The translations under genes and the position numbers were made by a program. Source: Antedon mediterranea (taxonomy: Eukaryota > Animalia > Echinodermata). From it: a stretch of 64,000 bases of DNA. The stretch is taken from positions 18,721,648-18,785,647 of the forward strand of contig NC_092673.1 of the NCBI RefSeq assembly GCF_964355755.1. Direction: 5' to 3'. The notes under the pieces were generated by a model. That model was not told the origin of the DNA, did not search any database, and saw only the letters and a list, made by a program, of their open reading frames with translations. Of the stretch, positions 10,141 to 62,157 are shown one piece after another. Numbering within the stretch: position 1 is the stretch's first letter; every line of letters begins with the position of its first letter.

Positions 10141-10176
<36 letters not shown>

Positions 10177-18885: not shown

Positions 18886-18899
18886 TGGTGTCAGAAGTG
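18886..18899 (+). promoter_or_regulatory. Primer binding site (tRNA-Leu-like)
   Basis: tggtgtcagaagtg directly after the LTR, complementary to a tRNA 3' CCA end. Confidence 0.8.
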
Positions 18900-18934
18900 C
18901 AGGAACTGTGAAGTAAGTACTGGTGACCACAAAT

Positions 18935-22990: not shown

Positions 22991-23179
22991 GTAAAGCGCA
23001 TTGAGAAAGCAAGTAGAAAGTAGTATCTTAAGTAGCGATTGTTAAAATGTAAATAAAAGAAAATGCCACAATGCAATAACTCATATTGAACATCTTTTCA
23101 AAATGTCAGTTTATCACAAACTACTGTATGTACAAACTAATTTAAAAAAAAAAATAAATAAATATATTAAAAAGGGGCA

Positions 23180-23346
23180 TGTAATGTATTGTATTCATGA
23201 TCATGTAGAATAATGATACAGCGCCCTCTATCCGATGTGGATTCATGTATTTGTTGGTGAATAGTACACACGGCAAAACGAGGTGTCCATTGTATTTATT
23301 TTCGTTAATGAATCACATAATATTAAACATAATATCGGACATTGCA
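23180..23346 (+). repeat. 3' LTR (167 bp)
   Basis: Identical to the 5' LTR except for a 10-bp deletion across AATAAA. Confidence 0.95.
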
Positions 23347-27392: not shown

Positions 27393-30300
27393 ATGGAAAG
27401 GTAGGTTTTTTAATTGTATTATTTCAAATCAAACAGATTAACCTTCAATTAATTTATAGTTTAAATGAAAAAGAAAACACTTTAAGATATTATTTTGAGA
27501 AACTTTTCAAATACAAACATAAATATTACAATTAAAGGGCCCATTTTCATCAAATATTTATTATTGAATGAAAGAAAGAAAAAATAAATGTTTACGTTGA
27601 GTTGAGTTGAAATATAATGATGATAATATTATTTTCATCAATCGTCATTTTCATAAAATAATGTAACACTTCATTATAATCTTTTATAATCATTTTAACA
27701 GGAACAAATTAGAAGAAGCTTTGCACAGGAATGATTTGCAAACAGTTAAACACATTTGTAGAACACAGCCAGATCTTGTGAAATCTATCAATGAGGTATT
27801 AAAAATATATTTTCATAATATTAACAAAAAGAAATTCTTTTCATTGAAATTTAAAATTGTTTACTACATTATTTAGCTGTAATTTTTGCTGCTGTTTATA
27901 TTGACAGAAAACCAATTTCACATAATGTCTGTTGTCAGTATTTATAAACTATATTATTTTGATTCCTTTCCAGGATGGGAACACTCCACTACATGTATAT
28001 CTGAGTAAAGTAATTCCTACCTTAGATATACTTACTTGTCTTTTAAATCATAATGTGTCTGCAGCAACATTGCAAAATAAGGTAATCCACATGGATTTGC
28101 TAGTGTAGTAGGCTACCATTCTCTGCAGTAAACCATTCTATTTATCAATAATGACAAATATGATTTTTTACTACATTATTTAGCTGTAATTTTTGCTGCT
28201 GTTTATATTGACAGAAAACCAATTTCACATAATGTATGTTGTCAGTATTTATAAACTTTATTATTTTTATTCCTTTCCAGGATGGGAACACTCCATTACA
28301 TGTATATCTTAGTAAAGTAAATCCTACCTTAGATATACTTACTTGTCTTTTAAATCATAATGCGTCTGCAGCAACATTGCAAAATAAGGTAATCCACAGG
28401 GATTTGCTAGTGTAGTAGGCTACCATTCTCTGCAGTAAACCATTCTATTTATCAATAATGACAAATATGATTTTTTACTACATTATTTAGCTGTAATTTT
28501 TGCGGTTGTTTATATTGACAGAAAACCAATTTCACATAATGTCTGTTGTCAGTATTTATAAACTTTATTATTTTTATTCCTTTCCAGGATGGGAACACTC
28601 CATTACATGTATATCTGAGTAAAGTAAATCCTACCTTAGATATACTTACTTGTCTTTTAAATCATAATGCATCTGCACCAACATTGCAAAATAAGGTAAT
28701 CCACAGGGATTTGCTAGTGTAGTAGGCAACCATTCTCTGCTGTAAACCATTCTATTTGTTTATCAATAATGACAAATATCATTTTTTTCTACATTATTTA
28801 GCTGTAATTTTGGCTGCTGTTTATATTGACAGAAAACCAATTTCACATAATGTCTGTTGTCAGTATTTATAAACTTTATTATTTTGATTCCTTTCCAGGA
28901 TGGGAACACTCCACTACATGTATATCTGAGTAAAGTAATTCCTACCTTAGATATACTTACTTGTCTTTTAAATCATAATGTGTCTGCAGCAACATTGCAA
29001 AATAAGGTAATCCACATGGATTTGCTAGTGTAGTAGGCTACCATTCTCTGCAGTAAACCATTCTATTTATCAATAATGACAAATATGATTTTTTACTACA
29101 TTATTTAGCTGTAATTTTTGCTGCTGTTTATATTGACAGAAAACCAATTTCACATAATGTATGTTGTCAGTATTTATAAACTTTATTATTTTTATTCCTT
29201 TCCAGGATGGGAACACTCCATTACATGTATATCTTAGTAAAGTAAATCCTACCTTAGATATACTTACTTGTCTTTTAAATCATAATGCGTCTGCAGCAAC
29301 ATTGCAAAATAAGGTAATCCACAGGGATTTGCTAGTGTAGTAGGCTACCATTCTCTGCAGTAAACCATTCTATTTATCAATAATGACAAATATGATTTTT
29401 TACTACATTATTTAGCTGTAATTTTTGCGGTTGTTTATATTGACAGAAAACCAATTTCACATAATGTCTGTTGTCAGTATTTATAAACTTTATTATTTTT
29501 ATTCCTTTCCAGGATGGGAACACTCCATTACATGTATATCTGAGTAAAGTAAATCCTACCTTAGATATACTTACTTGTCTTTTAAATCATAATGCATCTG
29601 CACCAACATTGCAAAATAAGGTAATCCACAGGGATTTGCTAGTGTAGTAGGCAACCATTCTCTGCTGTAAACCATTCTATTTGTTTATCAATAATGACAA
29701 ATATCATTTTTTTCTACATTATTTAGCTGTAATTTTGGCTGCTGTTTATATTGACAGAAAACCAATTTCACATAATGTCTGTTGTCAGTATTTATAAACT
29801 TTATTATTTTTATTCCTTTCCAGGATGGGAACACTCCATTACATGTATATCTGAGTAAAGTAAATCCTACCTTAGATATACTTACTTGTCTTTTAAATCA
29901 TAATGTGTCTGCAGCAACATTGCAAAATAAGGTAATCCACATGGATTTGCTAGTGTAGTAGGCTACCATTCTCTGCAGTAAACCATTCTATTTATCAATA
30001 ATGACAAATATGATTTTTTACTACATTATTTAGCTGTAATTTTGGCTGCTGTTTATATTGACAGAAAACCAATTTCACATAATGTATGTTGTCAGTATTT
30101 ATAAACTTTATTATTTTTATTCCTTTCCAGGATGGGAACACTCCATTACATGTATATCTGAGTAAAGTAAATCCTACCTTAGATATAGTGACTTGTCTTT
30201 TAAAGCATAATGTATCTGCAGCAACATTGCAAAATAAGGTAATCCACAGGGATTTGCTAGTGTAATAGGCTACCATTCTCTGCAGTAAACCATTCTATTT

Positions 30301-33300
30301 ATCAATAATGACAAATATGATTTTTTACTACATTATTTAGCTGTAATTATTGCTGTTTTTTATATTTACAGATAAACAATTTCACATAATGTCTGTTGTC
30401 AGTATTTATAAACTTTATTATTTTTATTCCTTTCCAGGATGGGGACACTCCATTACATGTACATCTGAGTAAAGTAAATCCTACCTTAGATATACTTACT
30501 TGTCTTTTAAATCATAATGCGTCTGCAGCAACATTGCAAAATAAGGTAATCCACAGGGATTTGCTAGTGTAGTAGGCTACCATTCTCTGCAGTAAACCAT
30601 TCTATTTATCAATAATGACAAATATGATTTTTTACTACATTATTTAGCTGTAATTTTTGCTGTTGTTTATATTGACAGAAAACCAATTTCACATAATGTC
30701 TGTTGTCAGTATTTATAAACTTTATTATTTTTATTCCTTTCCAGGATGGGGACACTCCATTACATGAGTATCTAAGTACAGTAAATCCTACCTTAGATAT
30801 AGTGACTTGTCTCTTAAAGCATAATGGATCTGCAGTAACATTGCAAAATAAGGTAATCCACAGGTATTACCTAGTGTAGTAAGCAACCATTCTCTGCAGT
30901 AAACCATTCTATTTGTTTATCAATAAGAACAAATAGGATTTTTACCACATTATTTAGCTGTAATTATTGCTGTTTTTTATATTTACAGATAAACAATTTC
31001 ACATAATGTCTGTTGTCAGTATTTATAAACTTCATGATTATGATTATTAGTATATTGGAAATTGACTATACTATAGTTATGTGCTTAAACCATTTGAAAC
31101 AAACTAAATTGCTCAGAAAGCAAATGACCCCCAGCCAAAAGTAATCTTTGTTCCCGCTTTTGATTTATTTCTGGTTCCACTCCTGGGTACCCTGATTTCA
31201 GTTCCATTTTTAATTTGTCATCAAAAAGAGCAATTATATATAATGTTTATTTCTGGTTCCGCTCCTGGGTACCCTGATTTCAGTTCCATTTTTAATTTGT
31301 CATCAAAAAGAGCAATTATATATAATGTTTATTTCTGGTTCCGCTCCTGGGTACCCTGATTTCAGTTCCATTTTGAATTTGTCATCAAAAAGAGCAATTA
31401 TATATAATGTTTATTTCTGGTTCCACTCCTGATTTAAAGTATACAGTTATCCATCAAATCAAACATATATCTTTTTTCTTAATGAACAAAAAAAATCTAC
31501 TTGTAATTTTTTATATTCAGGTGAATTAGTATAATTTTGTTTAAATATTTTTTACCATAAAATAAATATATATTGCTCATATGTAGCTGTAAAGATAACA
31601 ACAATTGAAAATGGTCTAATTAATTATAAATATGAAATAAAATTGGACAACTACAGTATGTTGACAAATAATAAAATAGCAAACAAATATGTTTGTGTTA
31701 TTGTTAACAAAATTAATAGAATCTGATTTTAATAAAAAAGAATTAGTAATTGTTAATAACCTGCTCCCTCCCTTACCTTCCAAAAAAAATACTTCTGTCA
31801 GTATATCCAGCTAATTACAGTTTGAATATGGCCTTAAAGAGATCCTTTTCCAGATTTCTTTTTTGCAAACATTTTGCCACAAATGGAAGAGAAATGTAAA
31901 TAATGTTTAGTTCATAGTGGTTTCCAAAATCTAAAAATGTTTGAGCAATGCAATTGGAAAAAGAAATTTAACATGAAATTATTCTTTTCAAACAGTGCCG
32001 TATCTTATCTTATGACTTTTTGGAAAAAATGATTCTATAAAGTTGCCAGTTAAAATGTTATATACTAGTAAGTGCCCACAGATGGTTCTCGAATACATGA
32101 ACTTTGGTAAATAACTGAAATTGTCTAAGTCGCACTGTATACAAAGCAAATAAATACAGATATGATGGAATTTATGTATTCAAATATAATTGTCATCCTG
32201 AGAATTACCTTAATTTTGTTTATTGCATGGTATTGTTCACCAAATTCCTATCTTGGTACATTTGATGATAGGATGGTATAAGGCTTCATGATATGATATG
32301 ATTTTCATCGAGGCCAATGGTTTAAAATAAATTTTTTATCGTTAATATCTAACTTAGCTTAATTATGATATTGGTTTCATTGGGTGTTAAAAATCAGTAC
32401 TGAAAGTATGTACCAACTTTCTCTACCATTGAGTATAAATTCTAGAAGTTGCACTTAATTTACTAAAATTTCCTATTACCTAAATTTATATATAAATTCA
32501 TTAAACTTCTTATTGGCCTCATATTTTTAATGCTGAACATTTGTTTGTACAATTTTATGAAATATGTATTTTATTAATGTTCAAATTTTGTGTTTGATAT
32601 TGTACAGTAAGTAGATTTAATGATTAATAACTTACATTAAGTAAATAGGCTAACAATCACTAGATCTGATCCATGGTAAGATATAGTGACGTAGTGTCTC
32701 ATTCAGCATGGGGCACCAGTAGCATTGCAAAATAAGGTAAATGTACAGGGATTTGCTAGTGTAAAGTGCTGAAGTAAAGCATTCAATGAGAGAAAAAAGT
32801 AAGCACATTAACAAAAATCAAATTTGATTAAAACAAACCAAATAAAAAAATAACTAAATAGTTATATATGATTTATGATAACTGATTTAAAGTGTACAGT
32901 TTCCTATCACATAACATAAATATTTAATTTTCTTAATTTTTATATATTCAGTTATTAATGAACAATTATTGACAATGGTCTACTTAATTGTAAATATGAA
33001 ATAAAATGTGACAACTACTATTAAAACAACTAATAAAAATTAATAGAATCTGATTTTAATAAAAAATGATTATTAATTAATAATGTGCTCCTTCCCTTAT
33101 CTTACAAAAAAATGCTTCTGTCAGTCTATCCAGCTAATTATGAACATGGCCTTAAAGAAATCCTTTTCCAACCTAGGATCTTTTTGTGCAAACATTTTGC
33201 CACAAAATGAAGAGAAATGTAAACAATGTTTTGTTAGTTTTCAAAATCTAAATTGTTTGAGTAATGCAATTTAAAAAAGAAAGGTAATACGAAATTATTC

Positions 33301-36300
33301 TTTTCAAACTGAATGCTTTTAAGAAAAGTTCCGTCTCTTATCTTGTGACCTTTTCGGAAAAATGATTTCTCGTTAAAATATAATATACTAATACTAGTAA
33401 GTGCTCACAGATGCTTCTCGAATACATGAACTTTGGTAAATAACTGAAAATTGCATTGTACACAAGGCAAATATATACAGATATGATGGAATTTATGTAT
33501 TCAAATATAATTGTCATCCTGAGAATTACCTTAATTTTGTTTATTATATGGTATTGTTCACCAAATTCCTGTCTTGGTACATTTGGTGATGGGATGGTAT
33601 AAGGCTTCATGATATGATATGATCTTCATCGAGGCAAATGATAAATTTGTTTTGATCGTCAATATAGTACACTGGTTTTCATTAGGTGTTAAAAAATAGT
33701 ACCAAAAGTATGTACCAACTTTCTCTTCCATTGTGTAAAAATTCTAGAAGTTGCACTTAATTTACTGAAATTTCCCATTACCTAAATTTATATGTAAATT
33801 CATTTAACTGCTTATAATGGCCTCATACATGATGTTTAACATCTAAACATTTGTTTGTACAATTTTATAAAATATGTATTAAATTATTAATGTTCAAATT
33901 TTGTGATTGATATTGTACAGTAAGTAGATTTTAATGATTACTTACATTAAGTACTTACATTAAGGCTAACAATCACTAGATCTGATTCATGGTAAGATAT
34001 TCTATTTTGTTCTCATTTATCAATAGTCGACAATTATGATTATTTACCACATTATTTAGCAGTAATTTTTTGCTATGGTTTGGGTTGACAAAAAAAACCC
34101 AATTTCACATAATGTTTGTTGTCAGTATTACACCAGCAACATTGAAAAGAAGGTAATGTACAGGGATTATACAGGGATATTTCATTTGTATCTGGATAGT
34201 ATCCAAATATTATTTGCTTTGAAAGTTTATAGTAAAACTATTTGTTGTTATGGCTCAAACATTTTAACACATCTACCTACTGTTCCAAAGTAAACTTTTA
34301 TTAAATTTATCTCTCTCTCTCTCTCTCCTCCATCTTTCAATGTTGAAGGCGGTAGACTATAAACGGCAGCGCTTAAGTTTTGGTTTGGATACAGGAGTTG
34401 GCGCACTGTACAAATTGATGTCATTTATTGGCAAATAGTAATTTCTATTCACGTCCTTATTTACAACCAATGTTAAAAAATAGTAAATCTATGTATTATC
34501 ACGTGATGCTCTTTCATCCAATCTCTAGATGGTAAATGTTTGAGCCATGATATAATACTGTATGTATGTGATGCATAATTAAAGTGTGTTATATTGTATA
34601 TCAATAATTTCTCAAAACTACTAATAACTAAACCCATTTTTTTAATAGGATGGAAATACACCTGTCTCTCTTTTAGAAAGTAACAGGCTGATAAGTGACC
34701 AAAGAAAAACTGAAATTTTAAACTTCTTAGAAGGTAAGTGAAGTTTTAATTATTCAAATTCTAGGATCAACTAGTTTCATTGCAAACGATAAAAATTTTA
34801 CTTCTCGTCCCAAGTGAAGAAGAATGTCCAGATAAAAAAAATTAACATTTATGATATATCATTCACAGGTTTATTATAGATTAAATAATTCAGTGGGATA
34901 GTAGTATACATGGAAGTTGTGATATGTTGCAAGATGTAAAAACCTAATTTTTTATGATTTGAAAATTGCAAATAAATTAGAAAAAATATTTTGCCATTAA
35001 TACGATAAAAATAACACAAAAACGCAAACTTTAAAATTCCTTTGAAATAAAAATATTAAATAAATCATTTTTCAAATCAAATCAATCTCTTTATTCAATA
35101 CATCAAAACAATACACATAACAAAAATAAAGAGATTTTAATGATGATGATGATTTTAAGATGAAAGGGACCTCCAATAAACCTCAAGGGGCTTTTGATAT
35201 TAGGCTTTACTTTAAACTAGTTACAATAATCGGACGGGGGACATGCATTGTTAAGGAATATTTGAACTTTATTAATTGCATGTAAATGTAGATTTTTTTT
35301 TTTTAATGTAATCTATTTTATATATAATGCTATGTACAATTGGTATTCGTATTCAAGGCAAACAATTTACGATAGGAGGCGATAAATATTGAATATAAAA
35401 ATCTAATCTTGTTAAATCCCAGTTTTTGTTTCCACAATGGATGAATTTCCTTCACACATTTTAAAGCCTGCTTAAGAATACTATTTTTCTGTATGTAAAA
35501 TTAAACATAATGCGTAATGTATTTTACCTTCACTCTTACAATTGTATTATCTTATACCAGGGGTGGATCTAGTCATTTTTATTTGAACTTTATTAAGTGC
35601 ATATAAATGTAAATGTAGATTATAATTTTTTTTTTAGATTGCCGATGTGGACCAAACAATTTTTTTTTTCTAGACGCCCGGAAATAGCATCTGAAGCGTT
35701 TTGGCCGTTCGATTCTTTTAGCTCATTTTCCTGTAAAATCGTTGTATGTAAATGGGTGGCGCGTCAATAACATTTAAAAGAATATACGACCCCCTCACCC
35801 CCCCCCCCCCCTAATTTTCCCCTGTATGTAACTTTCCAAGCAAATAGCACAATGCAAAGCAATACGGAGCAGTTAAATTATTGAAAAATTGAGCTTCAGA
35901 AAACAATAATACTATTAGTACACACAGAATAATAGAATATTATACAGATATTGCCTGCTTTGAGGTAAAATATAAGATTTGACCTCCCTGAGGGAATGAT
36001 ATTTTGTTCAAGGGAATAATACATTTCCAAAAGCGCATAGTGCTGAGGGAAATATATTCTATCGAACTAGATATCATTCCCCGCGGGATGTCAAATCTTA
36101 CATTTTACCGATATAAAAGGCGATATCTGTTATATTATATAGCCAACAACAAGTTAAATATTTACTGGGTCGGGTAGCTAGGCCTCCTTTATGTAATAAG
36201 CCTGCCTAGTTAGGCGTTGCATTCACCTTATCTTGCGAAGAATAATATACAGATAATTACTAATTAATGATTCCTTGGCAATAAAATATTCACTTAGGCC

Positions 36301-39300
36301 TAGGTTGTTTAAATTAACAGAAGAATTTCCATCAATAAGCCTACATTAATAGTAATTGAAGAATTTTATGAAGAACTCTATCAAAGCAGCCAGTCAGTGG
36401 ACCTTCAATTATCCATAGACTCGGAAGAAATTCCAGACATCACATATTGGGAGGTGCAGCATGCAGTCAAAAACATGAAACGAGGGAAAGCACCAGGACC
36501 AGATAACATTTTAATTGACACAATCAAAGAGGGGGAGGACGTCATTGCTAAGAAGCTGGCGAAGCTATACACAGCTTGCTTACATCAGGGGAAAGTGCCA
36601 GAGAAGTGGAAAGAATCTAACATGATCATCCTTTTAAAGAAAGGGGACAAGAGGGATCTCAAAAACTACAGACCTATTAGTCTTCTTTCAAACATATACA
36701 AGTCAAGTTGTTTACAAGAATCCTGACAAATCGAATGGAAAATTCACTTGATAGCCACCAACCCAGAGGACAAGCAGGGTTTAGGAGTGGTTTTTCTACC
36801 ATGGATCAACTGAACCAGCTCAAAGAAAAATGCCAAGAATACAACAAACCACTTTGTATGGCCTTCATAGACTATGAAAAGGCATTTGATTCAGTGGAGA
36901 CACAGTCAGTTCTAAAAGCTCTGCAAGATCAGGGAATTCATTATAAGTACATTAACCTACTCAAGGACATCTACACCAACTGCACTACCACAGTTACGAT
37001 TCACAAACCAAGCGAGAAAATCCACATAAAGAAGGGTGTCCGACAAGGCGATACAATTTCACAAAACCGTTTACAGCTTGTTTGGAAGGCATATTTCGCT
37101 CACTGGAATGGGAGGATAAAGGAGGGAATATCAATGGAGGAAAATTTTATCATTTGAGGTTTGCAGATGACATTGTTGTCCTGGGAGAGCAAATCAGTGA
37201 AGTGGAGGATATGCTTAAAGACCTTGCCAATGCCAGCAAATGCTGTGGATTGAAAATGAATATGAAGAAAACAAAAGTTATGGCAAATTCCATGGTACCT
37301 CATGGTTCTGTGACTGTTAATGGCAATAAAATTGATGAAGTAAATGAATATATCTATCTGGGGCAGAGATTTAGCCTGAGAGAAAAGAATCAAGAACAGG
37401 AGATAAAGAGGAGAATCAGATTGGGCTGGTGCCAATATGGTAAACTGAGCAACATCATGAGAGGGGAAATCCCGTTAAGCCTAAAAAGAAAGATCTGTAA
37501 TCAATGCGTGTTACCAACCATGACATATGGAGCTGCGACCTGGGCACTGTCAAATAAAATGGAAAAGAAAATAGCAGCAGCACAGCACAACATGGAAAGA
37601 AATATGCTCGGAATCACATATAAAGACAGAAAAACAAATGAATGGGTGAGAAAACAAACACAAGTTCAAGACATGAACTATCAAATTAAGTAAGTGGAAG
37701 TGGGCTGGACATATCAGTAGGAGAAGAGACAATAGATGGCCTTCGCTAATGACATCATGGAGACCGATGGATGGGAGTAGAAATAGAGGAAGACAAAGAG
37801 TGAGATGGCAAGATGAAATAGACAAGTATTGGGGTACAGTGCAGTGGCAGGGAGCAGCTAGAGATCGTGCACTGTGGCAGAAACATGCTGAGGCTTTTGT
37901 CCAACAGTGGACTGACAACGGCTGATGATGAATAGTAATAATATTATTATCAGGTAGGCCGAATAAATAATAATTCGTCTTCTTTGGGGACAGCGCGCTG
38001 CCCGTACCAGGTTACTACCATGAGTATTGACCAATAACAAACGATCTTTCATCGTGTCTAGGGAGGGCTAATAACAAATGAGGGCGCTATATATGCATAG
38101 TTTAAATAGTTTAGTTTATTAATTTCTTCAAGCAAGTTGCGTGGCGCAACGGATGAAGCGTTGTCTTGTAATGGTGTGACTAATCTTTGCAAGTTCAAGT
38201 CTCAGTAGATGACTTTTGTTTATTTATCGCAAAATTTGAGTGTTTCCACACGAAAATTACACTATATCAATATCTTCGTATTCGAGAAATTACTGGATTT
38301 TATATGTTTAATGACAGGGACACGATAATTACGCGAAAATTACTCAGTCAATATCATCATAATCGAGTATATATACAATTTACAATCCTCGCAGTGGTAG
38401 TCATGTGATGCAGTTTCAACCAATCACGTTCACGTATTTACATAGGCTGTAATATAAATAAATATTTGGCCTTGGTTTGGTGGTACTGTTAGTAGGACTA
38501 ACTAAAAAGAAAACCAAAACTGAATTTGAAACTTAAAGTTTCAAACTTTTATAGGCTAAGACCAATCATATAAACTTAAGTCCCATTATGGGCAATTGCA
38601 GTTGAGTTTTACAAACAGTGTTAAAGGCAATTCAACTTCAGTGGAAATAAAATGTACTTAAGTCAAATGTTTTGTACTTAAGTTGAATACAATTGTACTT
38701 CAGTGCAATGTATTTGGCTTAAGTTTAACTTGGAGGTAACTGATAAAATTGCTTGCCATATAGCAGTGATGCCTTATCTTTGGTTCGCAGCGTGTGATTG
38801 TTATACTGAATTCTGTGTGTATAATGTTAATAAATGTTTTGAATTTTCAATTATGTATACTGTTCAAATATGAGTGAGATATTCTTGTTTTTGTGTACTA
38901 GTCCCCCTCCCACAATACTTGACCCCTCTCAAATTTAGCGCTTGATGCGCCCCTGCTTCAATAGGATCAAATCCCCCTTGTCGTCCCCCTCCCCAATGAT
39001 CTGTGTCATGAATATATAAAAGTGTTGCCGAGTTGACGTGACTTTTTATATAAAATTATATGTAATTGTTTTGTTTTTGGTAATGTTTCAGATTTACCAA
39101 GTCCTGTTAGTGATCAATTTCAAACACAATTTGAGAAACTAAAGGTTCAAAAACAGAATGGTGAGTTACAGTGTGTTATATGCATACATATGATTGCAGA
39201 TTTAGAAAATGCAATGAAATAATAGGAATAAAGATTATTTCAATTTATTTCCAAAATATTATAACATAAAACTAATTTGTTAATAAATATAATTGCATAT

Positions 39301-51300: not shown

Positions 51301-54300
51301 AAAAAAAATCTTATCCTCTTCACAGATGAGCAAGTTGATACAGCGACTACTACACAAGCCAGTGAACAAGGTATGATCCATTGATGATACAGTCAAGTGT
51401 ATAAAGACTAATTTTAATCTACATTTTGTTGAACCAAAATTGAACCGTTCACACCTGTTAAAAAACCAAGCATTATCTATATATTAAAGCATTATTATTG
51501 TTATTAAACTATCTGTTTTTTTTTAACTCTTTCACTGCGTATACAGTACTCGGTATTACCGGGTATGAGAAAAATTATTATTTATTTGTATTTGCCTATA
51601 ATATATAACACCCTCTATTGTTTTTTGATAAACTTGAAGATATTTGCAATTCATTAAAACTAATTTTTTAGCACAACATGCGCCCTCTATAGTTGTTAAT
51701 ATTATCTTGAAATATCACATATTATTATTATTATAAACTTGTAATTAAAATTATTTTGACCTTGGAAAGTTATATGATTAGCTATAATGGCACAAAAATA
51801 TCATCCACTTACCAATTTTACCCACCCCATAGGGCAATATCATGTTCATTCTGCAAAAAGAATTCTGAATTAGTCGTTAGTGTTTCTGTAACAGCGATTT
51901 TTTAGAAAAATTTCATTTTTCTATGATTTTGACCAAAAATGTTATGCCAAATTTTTTGTAAAACGATGAAAATAACTAGATTTGAACTTGTCACTTTGAC
52001 GAGTTCGGGTTATCCGCTCAAACGTAACATGTACCACATACATTATATGAACGCCGACAATTATTATGCCATCCTATGACATGAATGAAATATGTTTGGC
52101 AAGAAAGAAAGGTCATTGCGTATCATTTTTAATATTAATTGGAAATATATGTTTCCATTTATAGCCCTAAATTCGCTGGGTTGCATATAATATTCAATGG
52201 ATTGAGTCACACTAATCGACCAAGCGCCATATTGGTTGTGTACATGTGAAACTGGTATACTGTAGGTCTAATATAGATGTTTGTTACGTCCTTTATTTTG
52301 GTGAAATAAGACCAACAAGGGAAAATAAGTGAGAAGGATCAGGGATGGCCTACTAAAATTGCTCTTTGTCCGGATACGGAATTTCAGCTTCTTTGATGTA
52401 AAAACGATAAACTAAACAGCATTGATGCACGTAGATTTAAAATTTAAAAAGAAAAGATTAGAATGTTAGGTACGGTCATTTTATATTGACTATTAATGGC
52501 AAATATAATATTTTCAGCGTTAATAATGATTACTTTTCATATACCTAAGCACCACCTCGGTTAGGGTTAGATTTGTTGTTATTTCTCATTCAGACAGAGA
52601 ACACATTATTCTGTTCATCATGGCCTGAAGCATGATGATCTTAATTGATTATACTGTATATTGATGGTCCATGGTATATCTGATCCACTGAATCCAATTG
52701 AATAAATAGAGGCCCTATATGGTTATTGGCTCAACACTACAGATAAGTTTAGCTTCTAATAAAATAAGTTTTGTCCAAATTTTAAATTGATGTGCTTAGT
52801 AATCGTATTTTAAATAATGTTTTAAGATTATGAATTGTGATTTTGACATGTAAGTTAAATTTTATTATCATTATTTTTTTTTGTCGCGTTAAACTAATAA
52901 TGGGTTGTTCAGGAAGTTACTTTTATAATTTACCTCCGCCAAGGAGGTATATGTAATCGGTAGCGTGTGTTTGTTTTTTTGTTAGCAGGATTACTCAAAA
53001 AGTAATTACAAAATCTTTACCAAAATCGATATACAGATAGATATGTGGTCAAGGACCATTCCATTAAATGTTGGGACCATTTGTGACCATGGTCCCAATT
53101 CTGGACCACTTTTTAGTATACTTTTTTAGACCTGTTAGTGTTAAAGATAGGACAGAATTTTTCAAAAGCCGGCGACCAGTCTTAAAGTAACAAGTAAACT
53201 GAAATTGCATTTTCTCAAGAACTACTTGTCCAAAAAACTTTATTTTTGTATAAAAGGCAAGAGTTATATTTTGTGATTTGTAATTTTAAAACATAATTTG
53301 ATTTAATGTGCACGTTTTTTGTTGCGAGTAGTTTAAAAAACCTATTTCTTTTCAAATTCACTCGTTTGATTTTCGCGTTGCTGTTCTATTGTTAGTCAAC
53401 TGAAGCTATTGTTAATTGAAAGGCTTGTTACATAACCATTACACCAAACTTGCATACACATGCTTGTAGTGCAATTAGCCTAAATCACAAACAGCATTAA
53501 GACACACACAAATATATAAATATTATTTTTTTTGCTGGAGAAATCTTATGTATGAGAATTTTACAGTAGGCGGAGGTATGCACTCTCGGAGTGGCTTTCT
53601 AGTTTTCATTGTATTAAACATTTATATTGATATGTTCTGTGTTTAAAACACTATTGTTTGTTAGGCAGGATAGTCAGATGCTCACATCACTATGACACTT
53701 GTGAATAGATAGCTAGCTTGTCTTGACAAGTTAGTGAAACAGTGTGCCGTGGTGATGTGAGATTCCGTTTTTGGTCTTTTTTCTGTTGTCTTGGTCAATT
53801 TATTCGGTTTTCTTAGGCTATTTCGTGGTTTATTTTACATCAACATTTTTATTTTCAGACTTGTGCTAAACAGCGCATAGAGACTATTTGTATTTTGCGC
53901 TATATAAATTTAAAACCATTAAAAGTAAATAATTGTTCAAAAACATTTGTCATTTTTAATTGTAATGTATTTCTATATTATTACAATATGCATGTAATTG
54001 GAATTAGCCATTGGTTCATTATACAAGAGAGACATAAATTCAATGGACCAAATAAAAAGGTTCAGACTACTGTAGACTGGAAATAGAATGTTGGTGATCA
54101 TTAATTATCCCAAATTACTCCACTAATAATACTTTAGCTAATGCAAATGATTATCAACAGCCATCTCGTCATTTATCGTTTACAGATTCCTTATTGTGCT
54201 CCATACGTGCTCAAACGGTTTATGATGAGGAAAACATCAATTATTTCCGAATTTGTTGTTTGCTTTTTGAGGAAGGTACAAAGGCAATGAGATGGTTTTT

Positions 54301-57300
54301 CCTCACCCATGCATCTGATGGTGGCCTACAACCGGAACAAGTACATGAATTTTTAAAGAAAAAAAAACCTGAACTGAAAAAGCTAAACAAAACACAAAAG
54401 AATTTGTTATTCCCATCAGAAGGAAAAGCTGATATAGAGGATTTTGATATGACTTTATTAAACATTTTGATATGTAATCTTTGCGTATGTAATGATGATG
54501 AATCAAAAACTGTTAATGACCTCAGAATCTTCAGAAATGATCAGGCCCACAAGAAAGACTATCGCATTTATAGTCAGCATGATTTTGACCGTGAATGGAG
54601 TCGTTTATCAGGTATCCTGGACAAATTTGGAGTCAAGCAAAATGTAATTGATAGGTATGCTATTGCTACCGATAGTGACATACTGCAGTTTCTGGAAGAT
54701 CGAAAAGATCTTAAAGAGCTGAAAGAAAGTTTTAAAGACATGGAAAAGAAACTGGACCAGCACTGTGAAAGTACTTCATTTGATTTGAAAGAACTACTAC
54801 AGAAACAAGAAGAAACAAGCCAGAAACTAACTGATTTAAACCTAGTGATGATGGGAAAGGAAGAAAGGAAGGAACATACACTTCCCAGTGGTTAGTATTA
54901 TTCTGTCGTAGTTGGGCGTAATATTGTGGAAATTCAATTATTTTAAATATTTATTGAATAATTATGTTTAATAATCATAATTATTTCTATTTAAATCATG
55001 GATTTACAGTGTGTAAATTTAAGGCATTTTATGAACAAATTAGTTGATCCGCAGTTTTATAAGTACAAATCTAAAAGGTATGGAGGGCTCATTTGAGAAA
55101 ACAAATTTGAAAATCCGTCAACATGGTCCTTGCGGCTTTAAAATTACCACCTGAACCGTACCCTTCCAATCCTCCCCCTCTTTAATTGTGTCAATTAAAA
55201 TGTTTCTGGTCCTGGTGCTTTCCTTCGTTTCATGTTTTTGACTGCATGCTGCACCTCCCAATATGTGATGTATGCAGTTTCTTCTGAGTCTATGGATAAT
55301 TGAAGGTCTACTGACGGCTGCTTTGATAGAGTTCTTCATAAAATTCTTCAATCCTCCTCAAAATTATATCTTGATCTGTGATTTCTGTCTATTTTTTTTT
55401 TATCAAGTAATGATGTTATTTTCTGCTTTCCACTTGCAAGTTTCTGCTTTGTTTTCTTTAAACTTCTATTGTTTGTTATTGTTTTTTTAATTTTAAGAGT
55501 GTTGTATTTTCTTATGTCTTGTCGGAGTTTCTTTCGTATTGTCTTGCATGTTTCTGTATATTCAACATTTTGGAATCCAATTCCATCTCTCTTCATATTC
55601 CTCCTTTTCTCCATTAGCCACCTGGTGCTATCTGAGAGTTTGGACTCTTGCATTTTCTTTTCTTTCCCTGCTGTTTTTGTAAAGCTCTCATGTACTATGT
55701 CGATGATTTTGTCATTGCATTCGTCAAGGTCGGAGACATCTTCTACTTCCAGTCTTTGAAAGTGGTTTTGTAGTTAGTTGAAATTCATGCTTTCTGGCTT
55801 CCAAATTGATCATTCCGGGCTTTCTGTATTTTGCTATTTTCATTCTTTCTAGTCTTGTATCTACCTTCACTTTGCACCTAAGCATACGGTGGTCACTGCC
55901 AGTGTTTAATTTGTTGAATATGGTAACATCTTGAATTATCTTTGGCTTATTAGTCAAGATAAGGTCAATTTCATTTTTGGTGTTACCGTCTGGGCTTCTC
56001 CAAGTCCATCTTCTGGATATTTTCTTCTTGAAGAAGGTGTTCATAATTTTTAGTTTGTTTCTGGAAGCCAAATCGATAAGCATTTCTCCTCTGTCATTTC
56101 TGTGACCTGATCCAAAGTTTCCAATCACCTCTTCCTCCCCATCTTGCTTGATTCCTACTTTAGCATTGAAATCCCCTATTACTGGGTTAAAGACAAGATT
56201 ATTCCCTATTACTAGGTTAAAGACATGATACAGACAAGCATATAAATACTAATTTACATTTTGTTGAACCAAAATTGAACCGTTCACCCCTGTTAAAGAA
56301 CCAAGCATTATTATTGTTATTAAACTATCTGTTTTTTTTTAACTCTTTCACTGCGTATACAGTACTCGGTATTACCGGGTATGAGAAAAATTATTATTTA
56401 TTTGTATTTGCCTATAATATATAGCACCCTCTATAAACTTGAAGATATTTGCAATTCATTAAAACTAATTTTTTAGCACAACATGCGCTCTCTATTTCAT
56501 TTTTCTACGATTTTGACCAAAAATGTTATGCCTAATTTTTTATAAAACGATAAAAATAATTCTAATTTGTTTGATATTTTTATTCGTTACACATATCTTC
56601 ATCAATATCCAGTGGGAAAACCATATTCTATAAAAATTATAGAAAAAATAGTTTTTATCATGAATTGATAAAAAAACAGGAAATCCAAAATATATGTAAT
56701 GATGTCATTAACATGCAAATTAGCTTCTTTTTTTTTTACTTCCAACCATAGACCAACCTTTTAAAATAATTACAAAATTATGTCATTTAGTATTTTTTTG
56801 CAAATTTCTTAAAACAATTTCAATGAAATAAATGTTTGTGTATTTTAAAGGACAGGTACGGGCACAACATTTCTATTGATCATACATTCCAATAATCATC
56901 TATCTATAGTTTCCCCTATGTTTCATAATTTTTGGATTTTATTTGTGTTACACGAGCTTGTTGAAAATAAGCACTTTCTTATCAGTGGGGGGGGGGATAG
57001 TTCAAATTACACAGTAAAATCTGTATTCTTTTGTACACAAATTGTGTAAATAGAGAGGCATTTTAAAAAGCTATGAAAACTAAACGGTGTGGTAAAAAAT
57101 GTTATCAGATGACTAAATATAGGTAATATAACTTGAATTTTAGATTTCTGGTATTTTTATTCAACTTCAGATTTTTGTTTTCATGCTATAGCAAAAATTA
57201 TCCACCGTATATCCACCATCTTTTTTCACCTTCTAGGGAGTCACCAGACATGTTATTGCATTAGGTTAAACTACTGAAAAAAAATTCTTCCTGGTTTTTA

Positions 57301-60300
57301 TGGCAGAATATTGCCAAATTTTGTATTTGACCATATAAAGGAAAATTCATGTTTTTTCGTCTTGATTCTTGTTACAAATATTTGATTTATGTACAATTAA
57401 CCATCTGCCACAATTTAAATTCCCATCTTATTAAAATAATACTAATGACAATGGCAGTAAAATAAGAAATAATATTGATTATACATACTTGGATAAAATC
57501 ATGCATAATTGTATTATTTCACAAGATTCCAAAAAAAACTACTTTTTCACAGATGTGCAAGATGGTTCAGTGACCTCTGCATTACCACAGTCTGACATCC
57601 AAGGCAGTCAACAAGGTAGGATCCACTGGTTAATTCCAGAGGTTAATCATCTAAGTGGTTACATTTTAAAATAAAACTTAATAGACATATTATAATAATA
57701 ACTGTAGCACATTTTGAGTTATTCAAACTGTATACATTTTAGCTGAAAATGTATAGTTATGTTACTCTCTGCCACCATGTAACGGTGTCGTGTCGAGGGC
57801 CAAGACAATAACGATGGCACAAAATTATTCAATGTACAAAATACACTATTTATTCAATCAAAAGTAAGATATATATAAAACAATGTGACAATGTAGTGAT
57901 TCTGACTGATGTTATAGTCTCAAGAATCAATACCCAAACTAACTAACTTAACTACAAAACATATATTTATATTAAGGGGACAAAAGTATGACTAATTAAA
58001 TGGTACCACATCCTGATTGACTTTCCTTGGAATACCCTCCTCAGGAATGTAGTGTTCCAAGTTAAGTAGGCATCGGGGAGAGTAAGGGGTGAATAGCCTG
58101 TGTGACTAATAGGGTTTGGTCCCACCATGTTACAATGTATAACTCATAAAAAATCAACAGCTTTGTCATTTAAATGTGTAATGTATAAATAACTGTCTTT
58201 TCTGTATTTTTTTTAAACAGAATTAGTAACAAAACAATTAGATTCAGATTCACCAGCTACTGTTAATGAGGAATTTCAAACCCAAAAAAAGAAATTGATG
58301 ATTGAGGAACAGGAAAGAAAACTTGAAGCAGAGAGTGGTGAGTTAAGGATCATAAATGAATTTACTTTTTATTTTATTTCATCACCACACAAGTCAAGTC
58401 AGTTACAAAGTTGAACAATAGAAAATGATGAATAGACATTTATTTAAACATATAAAACTCATTCAAAATATCCTATGTCTTAAGCTGGCCTTTAATATAC
58501 TGTACTGTTCATACACATTATAGTTGTCGTTATAACAGAAGTGACGAAGGAATATCCATCAGATTCACCAGGTACTGTTAATGAGGAATCTCATACACAA
58601 TTGGAACAGGAAATTAAACCTAAACCAGAAACTGGTGAGTTAAGTCTCATAGAATAATTTGTATATTATTATATGGTTAATTTGGCCAGTTGTTGTTGCA
58701 CGCCCTTGTACACTCACTCCCGTATTCTTAAAGCAAACTTTGGTCGTAGTTCGAAGTTCGACTTGAAAAATTCCTAGTTCGAGCTATTACTTCAAATTCA
58801 ATTCATAAAAGAAGTAGTCAAAGTTTCGGTATTTCGGTAGAATCTTTGAATCGTTTCTAACGACCTGGATCATGGAGAATATTGTTAATGATATCGATAA
58901 TAAACAGTACGGAAGTCGCAAGAACTCGTCTACCACGCATTACCTTGTTGACCTTATTAACACTATCTTATCTGACATTGATTCAGGTGGAAAGTTTGTG
59001 AATCTATGTGCCATAGATTTCACCAAGGCTTTTGATCGTGTGGATCACACGATTCTGATTAGTAAATTAATAAATATTGGGGTTCGTCCGTCTATAATTC
59101 CAGTTATTAGTAGCTTCTTAACCAATCGAAATATTAACACCAAAATTTGTCAATGTGTTTCGTCCACCGTAGGCATCACGTGTGGTGTCCCCCAAGGGAC
59201 TAAGTTGGGTCCCATCCTTTATTTAGTGCTTGTCAATGATGTCGCCCAAGATACTCCTAAGAGGTGGAAATATGTGGTTGACTTAACCATCGGGGAAGTT
59301 GTTAATTATAGATGGGGAAATGATCAAAAAATGCAAACTATCCTTAACAATGTTGACACTTGGTGTTCTAGCAACAGCATGCTCCCCCACAACCTAGTAA
59401 ATGTCATATTATGAGAGTGTCCTTTTTGCAGGGCCACACACCGCAACCAATTTTTACACTTAATGACCATGTCATCGAAGTGGTTGAGTTTTTAAAATTA
59501 CTAAGGGTTGTAATACAATGTGATCTTAAATGGGACATTCAAGTTAATGAATGTGTTTCTAAAGCATCTAAACAACTTTTTACCCTTTCCATTCTTAGGA
59601 AAGCTTTGGCCCCAGCTAACGACCTGTTAACTGTTTTTACTACGTACATACGTCCAGTTTTGGAATATGCGTGTTCCTTGTGGCATAGCTCATTAACCAA
59701 TATCCAATGTACTAGAATTGAAAGGGTACAAAAGAGAGCTCTAAGATGTATTTACGGTGCTAATTACATCAGTTATGAAAATGCTTTATCCATGTCTGGA
59801 TTATGTTCCCTTGGAGCCAGAAGAGATAACTTGATGATGAAATTTGGGAAGGGGATACTACTCTCTAAAGTCTATCGTGATATGCTTCCCCTTATCATAA
59901 CCGCAGTCGCAATTTGAGAAATTTTAATTTGTTGTGTCCAACGCTCTACCATCCCTAACATTATTGATAGAATGAATGAAGCTTCTAAAACTAAAACTTT
60001 GTAGGTTTATAACATTAATAATAATTACCGCATGTTTTGGTTTTTCTGGGTCTTTTGGCATTTTAAATTTTAAATATTTTTAACGGCTTTTTAATGATCT
60101 TATTTTCTGTGTACTTGTATATATTATATTGTTGTTAGAGTCTTTTAAATTTTTTACTTTGTACGTTGTTTGCAGAATTTTTCAGCCGTTGACTGCCTTC
60201 TGTTTGTACTATTTATGTGTTTTTTATGAATAAATACCTATATATATCTTATGTCTTAAGCTGGCCTTTAATATACTGTTCAACATATACTAACAATAAC

Positions 60301-61475
60301 TGTCTTTTCTGGATGTTTTTATTGACCAGAAGTGACATCGGATTCATCAGATACTCTTAGTGATGAATTTCAAACACAAGTAGTGGAACAGGAAACTAAA
60401 CCTGAACCAGAGAGTGGTGAGTGTCATAAAATATTAGTTGTGTTATTATATGGTTAAACTAACTTTAAATGTGATGTTATAGAATGGATTTTAGCTACAT
60501 TTTTTTTTTATTTCAACATTTATAAAAAAAAGAATGTCTTTAAACAGAATTAGAAAAAAATACTAAATTCATACATTTAAACGATTGATAAGGTAAATGA
60601 CTTATTTAACTAATCTTTAAAACAACATGTCTTTTATTATTAGTCAAGAATAAAAGCTGATACACTGAACAATATCTGCATAAATACTGTCATATTTATA
60701 CATAAGTTGCTGTGACACTTACAGGTCACCGTACTTTGATCACACCAACAAAACATCCCATTATGGTCGGCAATGTATTATCAACAAACTTAAAAATAAG
60801 AGATAGTTCTCTATCCAGTGTAAATAGAACAGTTTATATTTCATCAAAGAACATATTGTTATTGTTAATCTTATTTTGATATGCTTGCTCTATAAATTCA
60901 ACAACAGATTAATTATGATTGGTCAAAGCTCTCTGTGAAGCTGTCAACATCTTTGAAAATAGGCTTCTGGGCTCAACTTACTAAGTATTTGCTGCCCCAT
61001 ATATCTGGGAAAATTGGCCGTTGGTAGAGACAAAATTTTAAATTTACTTTGTTATTTATAAAGTCGCAAATTAGCATGCAACATACAAATACATTGCAAA
61101 ATAATAACAAATTGATATTAATTAATAATCAAATTAGGGTGTGTTACATTGTATAGGTCTATGGTACAGGGCTCAGGTGGCAGGCCTTTACTTTACTTGC
61201 CAACTAATGTTTATTTTTTTCTTATATAAATTTTCTGGTTTTTTATTGTAATAATCTAATGCTATTTTTTGTAATATATTAATAAACCATAAATCAATTA
61301 AAAAAAATGAGGTTCTGCACAGTAAATGAAGATGATAATGGATGAAAATGTATTAGAAATTTATGTTATTGTGGTTGATTGTGTTGAGTAATGAATAATC
61401 AAATGCTGTTGCTTGTGATATTTAATTCTTAATACTAATACTCATTTCAGATCTGCAGTCGCCAGAAAATGACAG
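27393..61475 (+). CDS. Gene 2 (3'-truncated by window): ANK-ZU5-UPA-DED-DED-HEPN-coiled-coil protein. Exons 27393-27400, 27702-27795, ten 108-bp ANK exons 27974-30852, 34649-34733, 39092-39160, 40533-41056, 41529-41663, 42227-42368, 42813-42842, 43805-44320, 45330-45374, 46206-46230, 47405-47436, 51326-51370, 54186-54890, 57553-57615, 58221-58337, 58539-58634, 60330-60416, 61451-61475
   Basis: All exons have canonical AG/GT ends with compatible phases; 3923 coding nt with no stop; ATG in aaaATGg context. Joining them into one transcript is inferred, not observed. Confidence 0.7.
27974..30852 (+). CDS. Array of ten 108-bp phase-0 exons, each one 36-aa ankyrin repeat (starts 27974, 28281, 28588, 28899, 29206, 29513, 29824, 30131, 30438, 30745)
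   Basis: ttccag/GATGGG...AATAAG/gtaatc; DGNTPLHVYLSKVNPTLDILTCLLNHNASAATLQNK contains the ankyrin GxTPLH motif; period 307 or 311 bp. Confidence 0.93.
31164..31432. repeat. 82-bp tandem repeat, about 3.3 copies
   Basis: ctggttcc recurs at 31171, 31253, 31335 and 31417. Confidence 0.9.
31430..34170. repeat. Diverged intronic tandem duplication of about 1.3 kb, each copy followed by a decayed ankyrin-exon remnant
   Basis: 31430-32680 aligns with 32890-34000; remnants ...gcattgcaaaataag/gtaaat at 32680-32736 and ...aacattgaaaagaag/gtaatg at about 34131-34152. Confidence 0.8.
34649..34733 (+). CDS. Ankyrin C-terminal capping exon
   Basis: DGNTPVSLLESNRLISDQRKTEILNFLE, phase 0 to 1, strong gtaagt donor. 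Confidence 0.8.
36357..37930 (+). mobile_element. 5'-truncated RTE-clade LINE, frameshifted RT
   Basis: GKAPGPD, NYRPISLLS, FIDYEKAFD, GVRQGD, LRFADD, RWQDEI; (TGA)n tail; 9-bp TSD aatagtaat. Confidence 0.92.
40533..41056 (+). CDS. ZU5 domain exon ending in HFS, plus start of UPA
   Basis: VGSAGDVLHL...IKLEIH, ISPIVKCGPEGTSFNKPISLSFPH, ITLNHFSFYAL match the ZU5 pattern of UNC5/ankyrin/PIDD1. Confidence 0.88.
41529..42368 (+). CDS. UPA-like domain exons (41529-41663, 42227-42368)
   Basis: In frame after ZU5; beta-rich with W..V and EYLW motifs, as in UNC5-type UPA domains. Confidence 0.65.
41840..41982. mobile_element. Short MITE (Harbinger/Tourist-like)
   Basis: TIR ctctgtctacact / agtgtagacagag, followed by TTA. 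Confidence 0.6.
42870..43082 (-). mobile_element. 5S rRNA-derived element (SINE3-like or 5S pseudogene)
   Basis: Minus strand tacggccttatcatgttgaaacactgg...gatcaccaaagttgagcaacgttggacccggttggagcttggatgggagaccgtctggga matches about 100 nt of 5S rRNA, then unrelated sequence; 3' boundary approximate. Confidence 0.75.
43354..43489 (+). pseudogene. Probable dead exon built from 18-bp repeats (S/P-S-G/S-T-G-V)
   Basis: Good acceptor, about 6 copies of tctggtacaggtgtgtct, but 1 nt out of phase and ends ACAG/ataaac rather than GT. Confidence 0.45.
43805..44320 (+). CDS. Tandem DED-like exon of gene 2 (phase 1-1)
   Basis: NDYFNELSEKGYIKPTDVDLLLNIAEL and LSPYRKRLCKALREF...TIWDVAFELERKNKL parallel caspase-8 DED1/DED2. 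Confidence 0.75.
44614..45236. mobile_element. Non-autonomous Kolobok-like DNA transposon
   Basis: TIR agacaccttccctaca / tgtagggaaggtgtct, TTAA TSD; empty single-TTAA site in the paralogous intron near 51230. Confidence 0.85.
46923..47368. repeat. 66-bp G-rich minisatellite, about 7 copies
   Basis: gggagtggggaggggttgctagaaccataaaaccctcctgcttacgagtctgttatccttattata. Confidence 0.95.
47449..48020. repeat. 88-bp minisatellite, about 6.5 copies (same family as 2312-2700)
   Basis: Same unit sequence and orientation as in the gene 1 intron. Confidence 0.95.
48030..50060 (+). pseudogene. Decayed CR1-group LINE endonuclease fragment, split by a Helitron
   Basis: IDPDQNFF before the Helitron; FSSIHFNARSL, SIYR.P, LGDFNID, SLIDNI after it, with stops and frameshifts. 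Confidence 0.8.
48154..49343 (+). mobile_element. Non-autonomous Helitron
   Basis: A|TC 5' end, 3' hairpin gatggtacgc-gagcgaagcga-gcgtgccatc ending CTAG|T, no TSD. Confidence 0.85.
50418..51200 (-). mobile_element. Helentron-associated (DINE-1/HINE-like) non-autonomous element
   Basis: Two (GACA/GACC)n blocks, terminal hairpin agtcgcttccacgcgact, inserted in an A run; absent from the paralogous copy near 44580. Confidence 0.75.
52930..53602 (+). mobile_element. Helentron-associated (DINE-1/HINE-like) non-autonomous element
   Basis: Subterminal IR tacctccgcc / ggcggaggta, GTTT-rich tract, 3' hairpin cactctcggagtg then ctag, T-rich flanks. Confidence 0.75.
54186..54890 (+). CDS. DZIP3/hRUL138-like HEPN domain plus coiled coil (phase 1-1 exon)
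   Basis: EENINYFRICCLLFEEGTKAMRWFF, Q..LLFP, DFDMTLLNILICNLC, LRIFRNDQAH (RxxxxH), FDREWSRLSGIL match the HEPN_DZIP3 family pattern. Confidence 0.85.
55150..56180 (-). mobile_element. RTE-clade LINE fragment (endonuclease and linker), degraded
   Basis: GDFNAKVG, RNDRGEMLID, MNTFFKKK, WTWRSPDG..KNEIDLIL, SDHRMLR; overlaps the family at 36357-37930. Confidence 0.88.
57553..60416 (+). CDS. Acidic linker exons (57553-57615, 58221-58337, 58539-58634, 60330-60416), the last three paralogous
   Basis: Shared SDS..T..(E/D)E..TQ...EQE.K...E(S/T)G/gtgagt pattern; all phase 1-1. Confidence 0.7.
57778..58134 (-). mobile_element. LTR remnant with adjacent PBS
   Basis: tgtaac...gttaca termini, minus-strand AATAAA, and tggtggcagag immediately after the LTR on the minus strand (57767-57777); no TSD. 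Confidence 0.6.
58840..60240 (+). mobile_element. 5'-truncated L2/CR1-group LINE, frameshifted RT
   Basis: IDFTKAFDRVDH, GVPQGTKLGP, YVVD (degenerate YVDD), RPVLEYA, IERVQKRALR; T-rich 3' UTR with AATAAA. Confidence 0.88.
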
Positions 61476-62157
61476 GTAAGTAGTACTGTATAATGAGTGT
61501 ATCACAGTATCTATACTGTTTATTTATACTCTCCAATACCATAGAGATAGACCAACACCCTGCTAGTTAATTGTTTGCCCTGAGATGATAGTCTGGAAGG
61601 GATATTATTACTATCACTTGTGTGTCTATCAGTTCAGTTGTATACTAATAACATAACCTGTTAATACAACCATAAAGTTCAACCATAGAAATAGTGTTGA
61701 AACAATTATACACAAAATCAAGAATAACAAACATCAAAAGAACTTTTAAACCCAACAACCAAGTTATAATAATAATGAAACAATCCTGGTTTTATATAGA
61801 ATTACATTCTGCATAAGCTTAACGGAGGATGACGGACCTTTTGTCCTACCAATATTTTTAATTTCAGTAAGATATATGCCACACTTCCGTTTTGGCCGAC
61901 AGACTCCCATATTTATACTTGTCTCCTTATGCTCCTGGTTTTATATTCTCCCGTATTACAAAGATAACTGAACTTTGATGTATATGTGTTGCTTTCTGCA
62001 ATAAAATATAAAAAAAAAAGCTAAAAAAACATACAAATTTATGATATTTAAGTCATAATTTATTGATCACCTTATTGAAGGGGATTCTTTTCACATAGTC
62101 ATTATGGTAACAATTGCTCCTTGCATTTCCTGATTTTGATAATAATACTGTAAAAAA
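60774..62157 (+). repeat. Recent direct duplication of about 1.4 kb of 45529-46922, including the 25-bp exon
   Basis: Near-identical by eye, with only a few substitutions and small indels. Confidence 0.93.

Follow-up and report, generated by a model that had tools for sequence, protein, structure and literature searches.

Ankyrin-type, ZU5-UPA, tandem DED-like and HEPN exons in one open frame at a crinoid locus

Does one animal gene join an ankyrin-type repeat array to a ZU5-UPA segment with a self-cleavage motif, a tandem DED and a HEPN domain of the ribonuclease type, or are these modules of separate genes that lie side by side? The question is raised by a stretch of 64,000 nucleotides of AT-rich animal DNA (hereafter, the window), which is assigned to a crinoid by its HEPN exon, identical over 201 residues (100%) to the Antedon mediterranea protein XP_071949167.1. 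The original prediction placed 12 ankyrin repeats, ZU5, UPA, DED-DED, HEPN and a coiled coil in one frame of about 1,300 aa. The reading preferred here, with a probability of roughly one half, is that the locus is a transcribed, spliced gene for one self-cleaving innate-immune protein with a UPA-DED-DED-HEPN effector chain; the odds that the full fusion, from ankyrin array to HEPN, is made are about even.

Modules of the 29-exon frame

Splice sites were placed by reading the sequence, and the 29 exons were then joined by coordinate in a script. The exons run from 27393 to 61475 (plus strand, as are all features below unless marked otherwise) with AG/GT at every internal boundary, and the phase-compatible join yields 1,323 codons and zero stops, which bears out the predicted frame and domain order as a sequence join. 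Random stretches of 516-705 nt from the same region were open in 22-149 of 20,000 draws. The first coding exon (27393-27400) supplies the ATG and a phase-2 donor. Exon 2 (27702-27795), included through the exon join and unmatched in Pfam, may form a helical N-cap for the repeat array. This array comprises ten phase-0 exons of 108 nt (27974-30852), each encoding 36 aa with a DGxTPLH start and each set in a tandem exon-plus-intron unit of 307 or 311 bp. It is closed in the join by a C-cap exon with an ankyrin-repeat-like start (34649-34733). The ankyrin identity is drawn from the DGxTPLH start, the layout of one repeat per exon, a match of one copy to Pfam Ank at E=0.016 (under the cut-off) and a small locally built ANK HMM, which gave the array 27.1 bits and no more than -1.3 to shuffled arrays, just 9 in 200 of which obtained a score. 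The predicted repeat type therefore stands; the predicted number does not, as there are ten full, near-identical exons and two cap-like ones.

The array was also compared copy by copy. Unit 1 equals unit 4 and unit 2 equals unit 5 letter for letter, introns included, and exons 3 and 6 are the same, which indicates duplication of a 925-bp block; an assembly artefact was considered as the source of this duplication. Mean divergence was 5.0% for the exons vs 3.4-3.8% for the intron flanks, and 12 of 36 codons were variable, nine of them changing the amino acid. Because the exons diverge no less than the introns, no constraint is evident. The array is a young, homogeneous tandem expansion with no diversified recognition surface, and on these grounds the variable ankyrin sensor of the original prediction is not supported and the idea of a hypervariable one was rejected. 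A decayed remnant of an ankyrin exon, with a stop codon, is found at 32660-32745.

The ZU5 exon (40533-41056), entered in phase 1, carries an HFS motif at 40916-40924 and the start of the UPA. It matched Pfam ZU5 with E=5.6e-18, and a profile built from five crinoid ZU5-UPA sequences aligned to UNC5B across the ZU5 and most of the UPA (E=2.5e-16); in a PDB search the window ZU5, the only one in the window, lay nearer to UNC5B than to ankyrins. The UPA continues in two exons, of which the first (41529-41663) was placed by the profile match to the UNC5B UPA and the second (42227-42368) by tblastn to paralogs (41-74% identity). Single exons gave no match to Pfam UPA. HFS occupies aa 574-576 of the joined frame, at the end of the ZU5 and directly before the UPA. 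According to the available part of PMC9162469, PIDD1 has His-Phe-Ser as its cleavage motif, Cys or Thr can serve as nucleophile as well as Ser, and Ser replaces His in NLRP1/CARD8. The equivalent site in the window and in six paralogous ZU5 copies reads HFS (four), HFT, HFC or SFT, so that the nucleophile is S, T or C in 7/7 crinoid copies with H or S two residues earlier; the residues around the site vary among these copies, and UNC5B has a different sequence at this position. Retention of exactly the PIDD1/NUP98 vs NLRP1/CARD8 residue set amid variable neighbors, judged by the same part of PMC9162469, argues for autoproteolysis. The PIDD1-like motif that had been foreseen is thus present, and there is good indirect evidence, from sequence conservation, for predicted ZU5 cleavage at HFS.

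The tandem DED-like exon (43805-44320, phase 1-1) was assigned by ESM and by fold comparison and is spliced on both sides in RNA. DED proteins made up the three ESM clusters closest to it, with scores of 0.89-0.90 that lie under the tool's usual recognition level. In the fold comparison, DEDs of caspase-8, cFLIP, vFLIP, FADD and PEA-15 took ranks 1-25 of the best 50 (top Z 7.9, rmsd 3.8, 101 aligned). The model had a pLDDT of 68.6, and its best Foldseek match was at E=0.069, with nothing under E 0.001. Pfam DED did not match the exon (43805-44320), and the paralog DEDs gave sub-threshold Pfam DED matches of 21-29 bits. RxDL, a motif expected in DEDs, was sought in the exon and is absent. No window exon matched Pfam CARD, and the ESM clusters gave no CARD for the DED exon. 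The predicted DED pair is consequently carried by ESM clusters and structural ranks and not by Pfam, with a model of low pLDDT, and the exon is called tandem DED-like with moderate confidence. No identical protein holding it was found among proteins of 104-333 aa. Of a second DED exon a truncated 3' end is left at 50060-50093, behind a LINE-like fragment.

The HEPN exon (54186-54890, with an alternative in-frame acceptor at 54138) is of the DZIP3/hRUL138-like type and was placed from Pfam, its model and contig ends. As predicted, it encodes a HEPN with RNDQAH (54533-54550): HEPN_DZIP3 (PF18738) matched with E=9.3e-11 and 42.1 bits vs a gathering cut-off of 27. RNDQAH corresponds to R116, N117 and H121 of the alignment, conserved in 62/63, 62/63 and 61/63 HEPNs, and the first HEPN helix is conserved as well (R/K in 60 of the 63, L in 58). 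The model (pLDDT 91.5) ends in a long helix C-terminal to the HEPN, a predicted coiled coil in line with the one proposed. A wide fold search of 48,161 chains returned the HEPN RNase Csm6 as the sole match with Z of at least 8 (Z 8.1, rmsd 4.0, 114 aligned), and comparison with AbiF gave Z 6.2, both values that helical bundles commonly reach; no Foldseek match to the HEPN model fell under E 0.001.

Short spacer exons separate and follow these modules. The one before the ZU5 (39092-39160) is of the type found at the N-terminus of paralog P0005. Between DED and HEPN lie micro-exons 45330-45374, 46206-46230, 47405-47436 and 51326-51370, the last a duplicate of the first (43/45 identical). Beyond the HEPN the exon join adds four acidic spacers (57553-57615, 58221-58337, 58539-58634 and 60330-60416), the first three of which also occur in XP_071949167.1. 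Phase 1-1 is shared by the DED exon, the HEPN exon and the majority of the spacers, which permits module shuffling. The last exon within the window (61451-61475, from the exon join) is an identical twin of 46206-46230 and ends in a phase-2 donor; a phase 2-1 exon comes after the 46206-46230 copy, and its second copy is absent from the window, which indicates that the gene extends beyond it. The spacers that follow the HEPN resemble the ones ahead of the ZU5 in paralog P0005, so a further module probably lies downstream. The twin exons belong to a segmental duplication (45529-47368 and 60774-62620, 96% identical) that includes a 65/66-bp satellite, much longer in the 60774-62620 copy, and 44358-45524 and 50211-51545 are 84-89% alike.

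Mobile elements were also observed in the window. An intact-looking LINE at 11720-15767 (+) has two ORFs, one of 408 aa and, after it, one of ~940 aa for endonuclease-RT. An LTR retrotransposon at 18709-23346 (+) has one open gag-pol frame of 1,351 aa (RT, RNase H, integrase) between direct repeats 18709-18885 and 23180-23346 (94% identity). Broken LINE-like fragments occupy gene introns at 36313-37922, 55121-56248 (-) and 58818-59914.

RNA joints and the UPA-DED linker

None of the runs is registered as RNA, and X1 was treated as such because its contigs contain GT..AG joints; it is a single run, represented by contigs only, from another individual. In runs X2-X4 the introns were evenly covered, and no GT..AG joints appeared among the rows listed. 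Six joints of the model were found among the 15 of 29 X1 joints listed: 39160>40533 (spacer to ZU5), 41663>42227 (within the UPA), 43453>43805 (linker to DED), 44320>45330 (DED to spacer), 46230>47405 and 47436>51326 (between spacers). The joint 46230>47405 lies on a contig with second-copy letters and so may derive from the duplicate outside the window; one X1 contig runs from exon 60330-60416 through a 61451-type exon to a 47405-type exon. Joints 34733>39092, 45374>46206 and 51370>54186 were not among the 15 of 29 listed. The ankyrin array itself lies outside the spans aligned to X1, and no joint with an ankyrin exon was among the X1 rows listed. Six joints fit the single transcript from 27393 to 54890 that had been proposed; none of them involves an ankyrin exon, and the sole RNA contig across the link from UPA to DED speaks against that link.

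At this link the exon join includes a 30-nt linker exon (42813-42842), which is followed by a repetitive linker exon (43382-43453) whose donor, 43453, is used in RNA. X1 enters the DED exon from this donor, whereas the 29-exon join had used 42842, and neither 42842>43382 nor 42842>43805 was among the 15 of 29 X1 joints listed. The one contig of X1 that leads into the DED exon retains 42908-43453 unspliced (546 nt with in-frame stops) at a depth of 28.1, which is exonic-like. Retention of this intron would bring a stop at 726 aa. Of the candidate acceptors, 43354 shifts the frame and leads to a stop at 770 aa, and 43382 preserves it (1,331 aa); the frame also stays open if the linker is skipped (1,307 aa). 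The surrounding 43373-43489 (+) is a repeat of an 18-bp type with AG|GT in each unit, and it thereby offers several in-frame linker acceptors and donors. The unspliced intron also holds a 5S rRNA-like copy at 42968-43084 on the minus strand (Rfam RF00001, 35.8 bits vs a gathering score of 38, E=2.6e-05), which could affect linker splicing or supply a start.

Entry into the HEPN exon was approached through contig ends. From 54184 on, two contigs of X1 share 30 letters, allowing for a 3-nt deletion. If 31-letter words are assumed, such a fork would be expected where the intron (depth 5.4) and a spliced route (depth 43.5) converge on acceptor 54186, the upstream exon ending in AAG; three spacer exons end in AAG. 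An X1 contig that stops at 54889 with 29 unaligned letters likewise points to use of the donor at 54890. Both indels listed in the X1 HEPN exon, a 9-nt in-frame duplication at 54521, just before RNDQAH, and a 3-nt deletion at 54195, are multiples of three. DED and HEPN are thus likely to share one transcript.

Paralogs and rival explanations

The six close ZU5 or UPA relatives found were all Antedon proteins. ZU5-UPA is in frame with DED-DED in three of these paralogs, P0004 (Roc-COR-DED2-ZU5-UPA-DED2), P0001 ((ZU5-UPA)2-DED2) and P0005 (ZU5-UPA-DED2), and ANK and HEPN are absent from all six. HEPN occurs in Antedon P0010 (HEPN-DED2) and in Anneissia P0043 (Roc-COR-HEPN). No identical protein holding the window ZU5 exon was found among proteins of 306-2000 aa. 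The crinoid ZU5 profile gave zero matches to the 150 HEPN relatives listed (157 found), most of which carry the HEPN at the N-terminus. The Pfam scan covered 135 of the 150, with 25 of 80 families listed for 48 of these; among the matches listed, NACHT/STAND, WD40 and TPR were the commonest partners, and ANK (P0034), CARD (P0013), Death (P0151) and a weak DED pair (P0010) appeared singly or paired. The order ANK-ZU5-UPA-DED-DED-HEPN was not found among the ZU5 paralogs or the listed HEPN relatives. Upstream, 1-10724 (+) holds the 3' part of another family member. Its COR-like exons matched crinoid Roc-COR proteins in tblastn (best E=6e-08); spacer micro-exons are also present, and the member closes with a tandem-DED exon (~10206-10724) that is 68% identical to P0001 and belongs to the other DED clade. 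The locus belongs to a family of crinoid genes built by exon shuffling, in which modules recur in other orders. Within this family the S/T/C of the ZU5 cleavage site is conserved over shuffled architectures, and the phase-1 domain exons explain the shuffling.

The open 29-exon frame, the several splice joints and the paralogs that recombine the same modules back the single-protein model; it is weakened by the unspliced contig over 42908-43453, by the lack of an ankyrin joint among those seen, by the separate RefSeq HEPN and by the paralogs, none of which has ANK or HEPN. A doubtful but sizeable possibility is that the locus is split in two. In that case an ANK-ZU5-UPA protein, 726-770 aa long, would terminate where the linker is retained or frameshifted, and DED, spacers and HEPN would be transcribed separately from a start within 42908-43453. 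This would account for the unbroken contig into the DED exon, for the stops met on intron retention or with acceptor 43354, and for the joints from 42842 missing among those listed. Contigs omit minor paths, however, and with an X1 intronic background of 5-14 the contig may blend pre-mRNA and exon; a DED-HEPN transcript would also have to begin at an internal Met inside DED1, and UPA and DED share one frame in paralogs. Far less probable is a stand-alone HEPN gene unrelated to the exons upstream. RefSeq does give the HEPN as a separate protein of 305 aa (XP_071949167.1), and such a gene would agree with the N-terminal position of HEPN in most listed relatives and at the start of P0010. However, the RefSeq protein starts at an internal Met (54287), past the conserved first helix. 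The exon has no earlier in-frame Met, and one has to go back to the DED exon to find the next, so a complete HEPN depends on coding exons further upstream; the contig ends, too, suggest spliced entry at 54186. A search for homologs of the HEPN exon among proteins of 411-2000 aa found none, which is weak evidence.

It is also conceivable, albeit unlikely, that tandem duplication recently produced a chimera here, now in partial decay, whose ankyrin array expanded neutrally and whose full fusion serves no function that selection maintains. The two sets of duplicated segments, the truncated second DED exon, the decayed ankyrin remnant, the identical units of the 925-bp higher-order repeat, with exons conserved no better than introns, and the presence of this module order in no paralog all fit such an origin. 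Against it, all large exons are open, the catalytic-type motifs are intact, the gene is spliced and the HEPN-exon indels in another individual preserve the frame.

On the single-protein reading, a sequence of steps can be proposed. The ZU5 fold would cleave between F575 and S576 through an N-to-O acyl shift, as in PIDD1. By analogy with NLRP1/CARD8, the ANK-ZU5 fragment may keep the bound C-terminal fragment inactive until a trigger arrives, and release would follow when the ankyrin part is bound, cut or degraded. The UPA may then aid polymerization of the tandem DED, which could recruit a caspase-8-like protease, and clustering together with the coiled coil may unite two HEPNs in a composite RNase site of the RNxxxH type. 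A short, effector-less ANK-ZU5-UPA form would likely also arise, since the UPA-DED linker would be spliced inefficiently. A bolder and rather improbable extension makes the protein an animal tripwire, in which NLRP1-style self-cleavage and release would drive a DED filament toward both caspase recruitment and HEPN RNase activation, the ankyrin bait would vary by exon copy number and linker splicing would pick an armed protein or an effector-less decoy.

Comparison with known systems

The prediction had held that no characterized protein combines all of these modules. The exact order was indeed not found elsewhere, and the literature searched gave no account of this architecture or of crinoid ZU5/DED/HEPN genes (the supplementary lists of PMC8195603 and PMC3710099 could hold one); the kind of protein is described in the available parts of both papers. 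Fusions of DZIP3-HEPN to TPR, ankyrin, CARD, NACHT, DEATH and LRR are reported from animal expansions (PMC3710099, available part), and Kaur et al. (2021) describe DED/TRADD-N expansions with HEPN, ankyrin, FIIND and UPA-ZU5 for which autoproteolytic effector release is predicted (PMC8195603, available part). Partial texts also report HEPN-NACHT expansions in cnidarians and the pearl oyster, with an RNase activity called putative (PMC8260672, PMC9646362), and ZU5 expansions in sponges (PMC3482391). The locus is thus one more of the lineage-expanded invertebrate mosaics with a module order not found elsewhere, and no new class of system.

Several known proteins resemble parts of it. The DED/TRADD-N mosaics combine DED with variable ankyrin, HEPN, FIIND or UPA-ZU5, and crinoids are unnamed in the available part of PMC8195603; no TRADD-N was noticed at the locus. 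Proteins with a DZIP3/hRUL138-like HEPN share the PF18738 membership and the Rx4H, and relatives are fused to ankyrin, CARD or DEATH; here, by contrast, the HEPN is internal, behind ZU5-UPA-DED-DED, and an NTPase is absent from the part of the gene in the window. Canonical ankyrins have 24 ANK-ZU5-ZU5-UPA-DD (PMC5135030, available part), an order that the original prediction overlooked. The succession of ANK, ZU5, UPA and death fold is common to both, whereas the locus has ten near-identical 36-aa repeats, one UNC5B-like ZU5, a DED pair and a HEPN, and identification as a canonical ankyrin was rejected from the repeat number (10, not 24) and the single ZU5. RNase L (ANK-pseudokinase-KEN) likewise has a nuclease of the HEPN superfamily on the same chain as ankyrin repeats (KEN is listed in the available part of PMC3710099). 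The nuclease at the locus is of the DZIP3 type (PF18738) and not KEN, and none of the coding exons from ANK to HEPN in the joined frame is of kinase size; RNase L orthology was rejected for these reasons. The homogeneous repeats of the locus hardly suggest a 2-5A pocket.

The closest parallels concern the predicted switch. PIDD1 (LRR-ZU5-ZU5-UPA-DD) also has a repeat domain, a ZU5 with His-Phe-Ser just before the UPA and a death-fold adaptor next (PMC9162469, available part). The locus differs in having ankyrin-type repeats for the LRR, one ZU5, a tandem DED-like segment for the DD and an added HEPN, and it was not accepted as a PIDD1 ortholog. In NLRP1/CARD8 the FIIND (ZU5-UPA) is followed by a CARD; the predicted cut at the locus would similarly leave the UPA on the death-fold fragment, and in one crinoid paralog the site reads S-F-T. 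NLRP1 is freed through degradation of its N-terminal fragment, and the UPA promotes CARD filaments in NLRP1/CARD8, according to partial texts (for the latter, PMC11874512). The locus, however, has a DED-like pair instead of a CARD after ZU5-UPA, which sets it outside this family; NACHT, LRR and CARD were not seen in the window, and the C-terminal fragment would carry the DED pair and a predicted enzyme. DZIP3-type HEPNs are abundant in corals, bivalves and amphioxus and are RNases only putatively, as far as the available sources describe them. If the full transcript exists, a single animal protein would hold a predicted RNase along with a FIIND-like autoproteolytic switch and a death fold for caspase recruitment, and it would offer a compact test of death-fold clustering as a switch for a DZIP3-type HEPN. 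By analogy, the protein would most plausibly act in the manner of PIDD1/NLRP1, its adaptor being the DED pair and its effector the HEPN, as a member of neither family.
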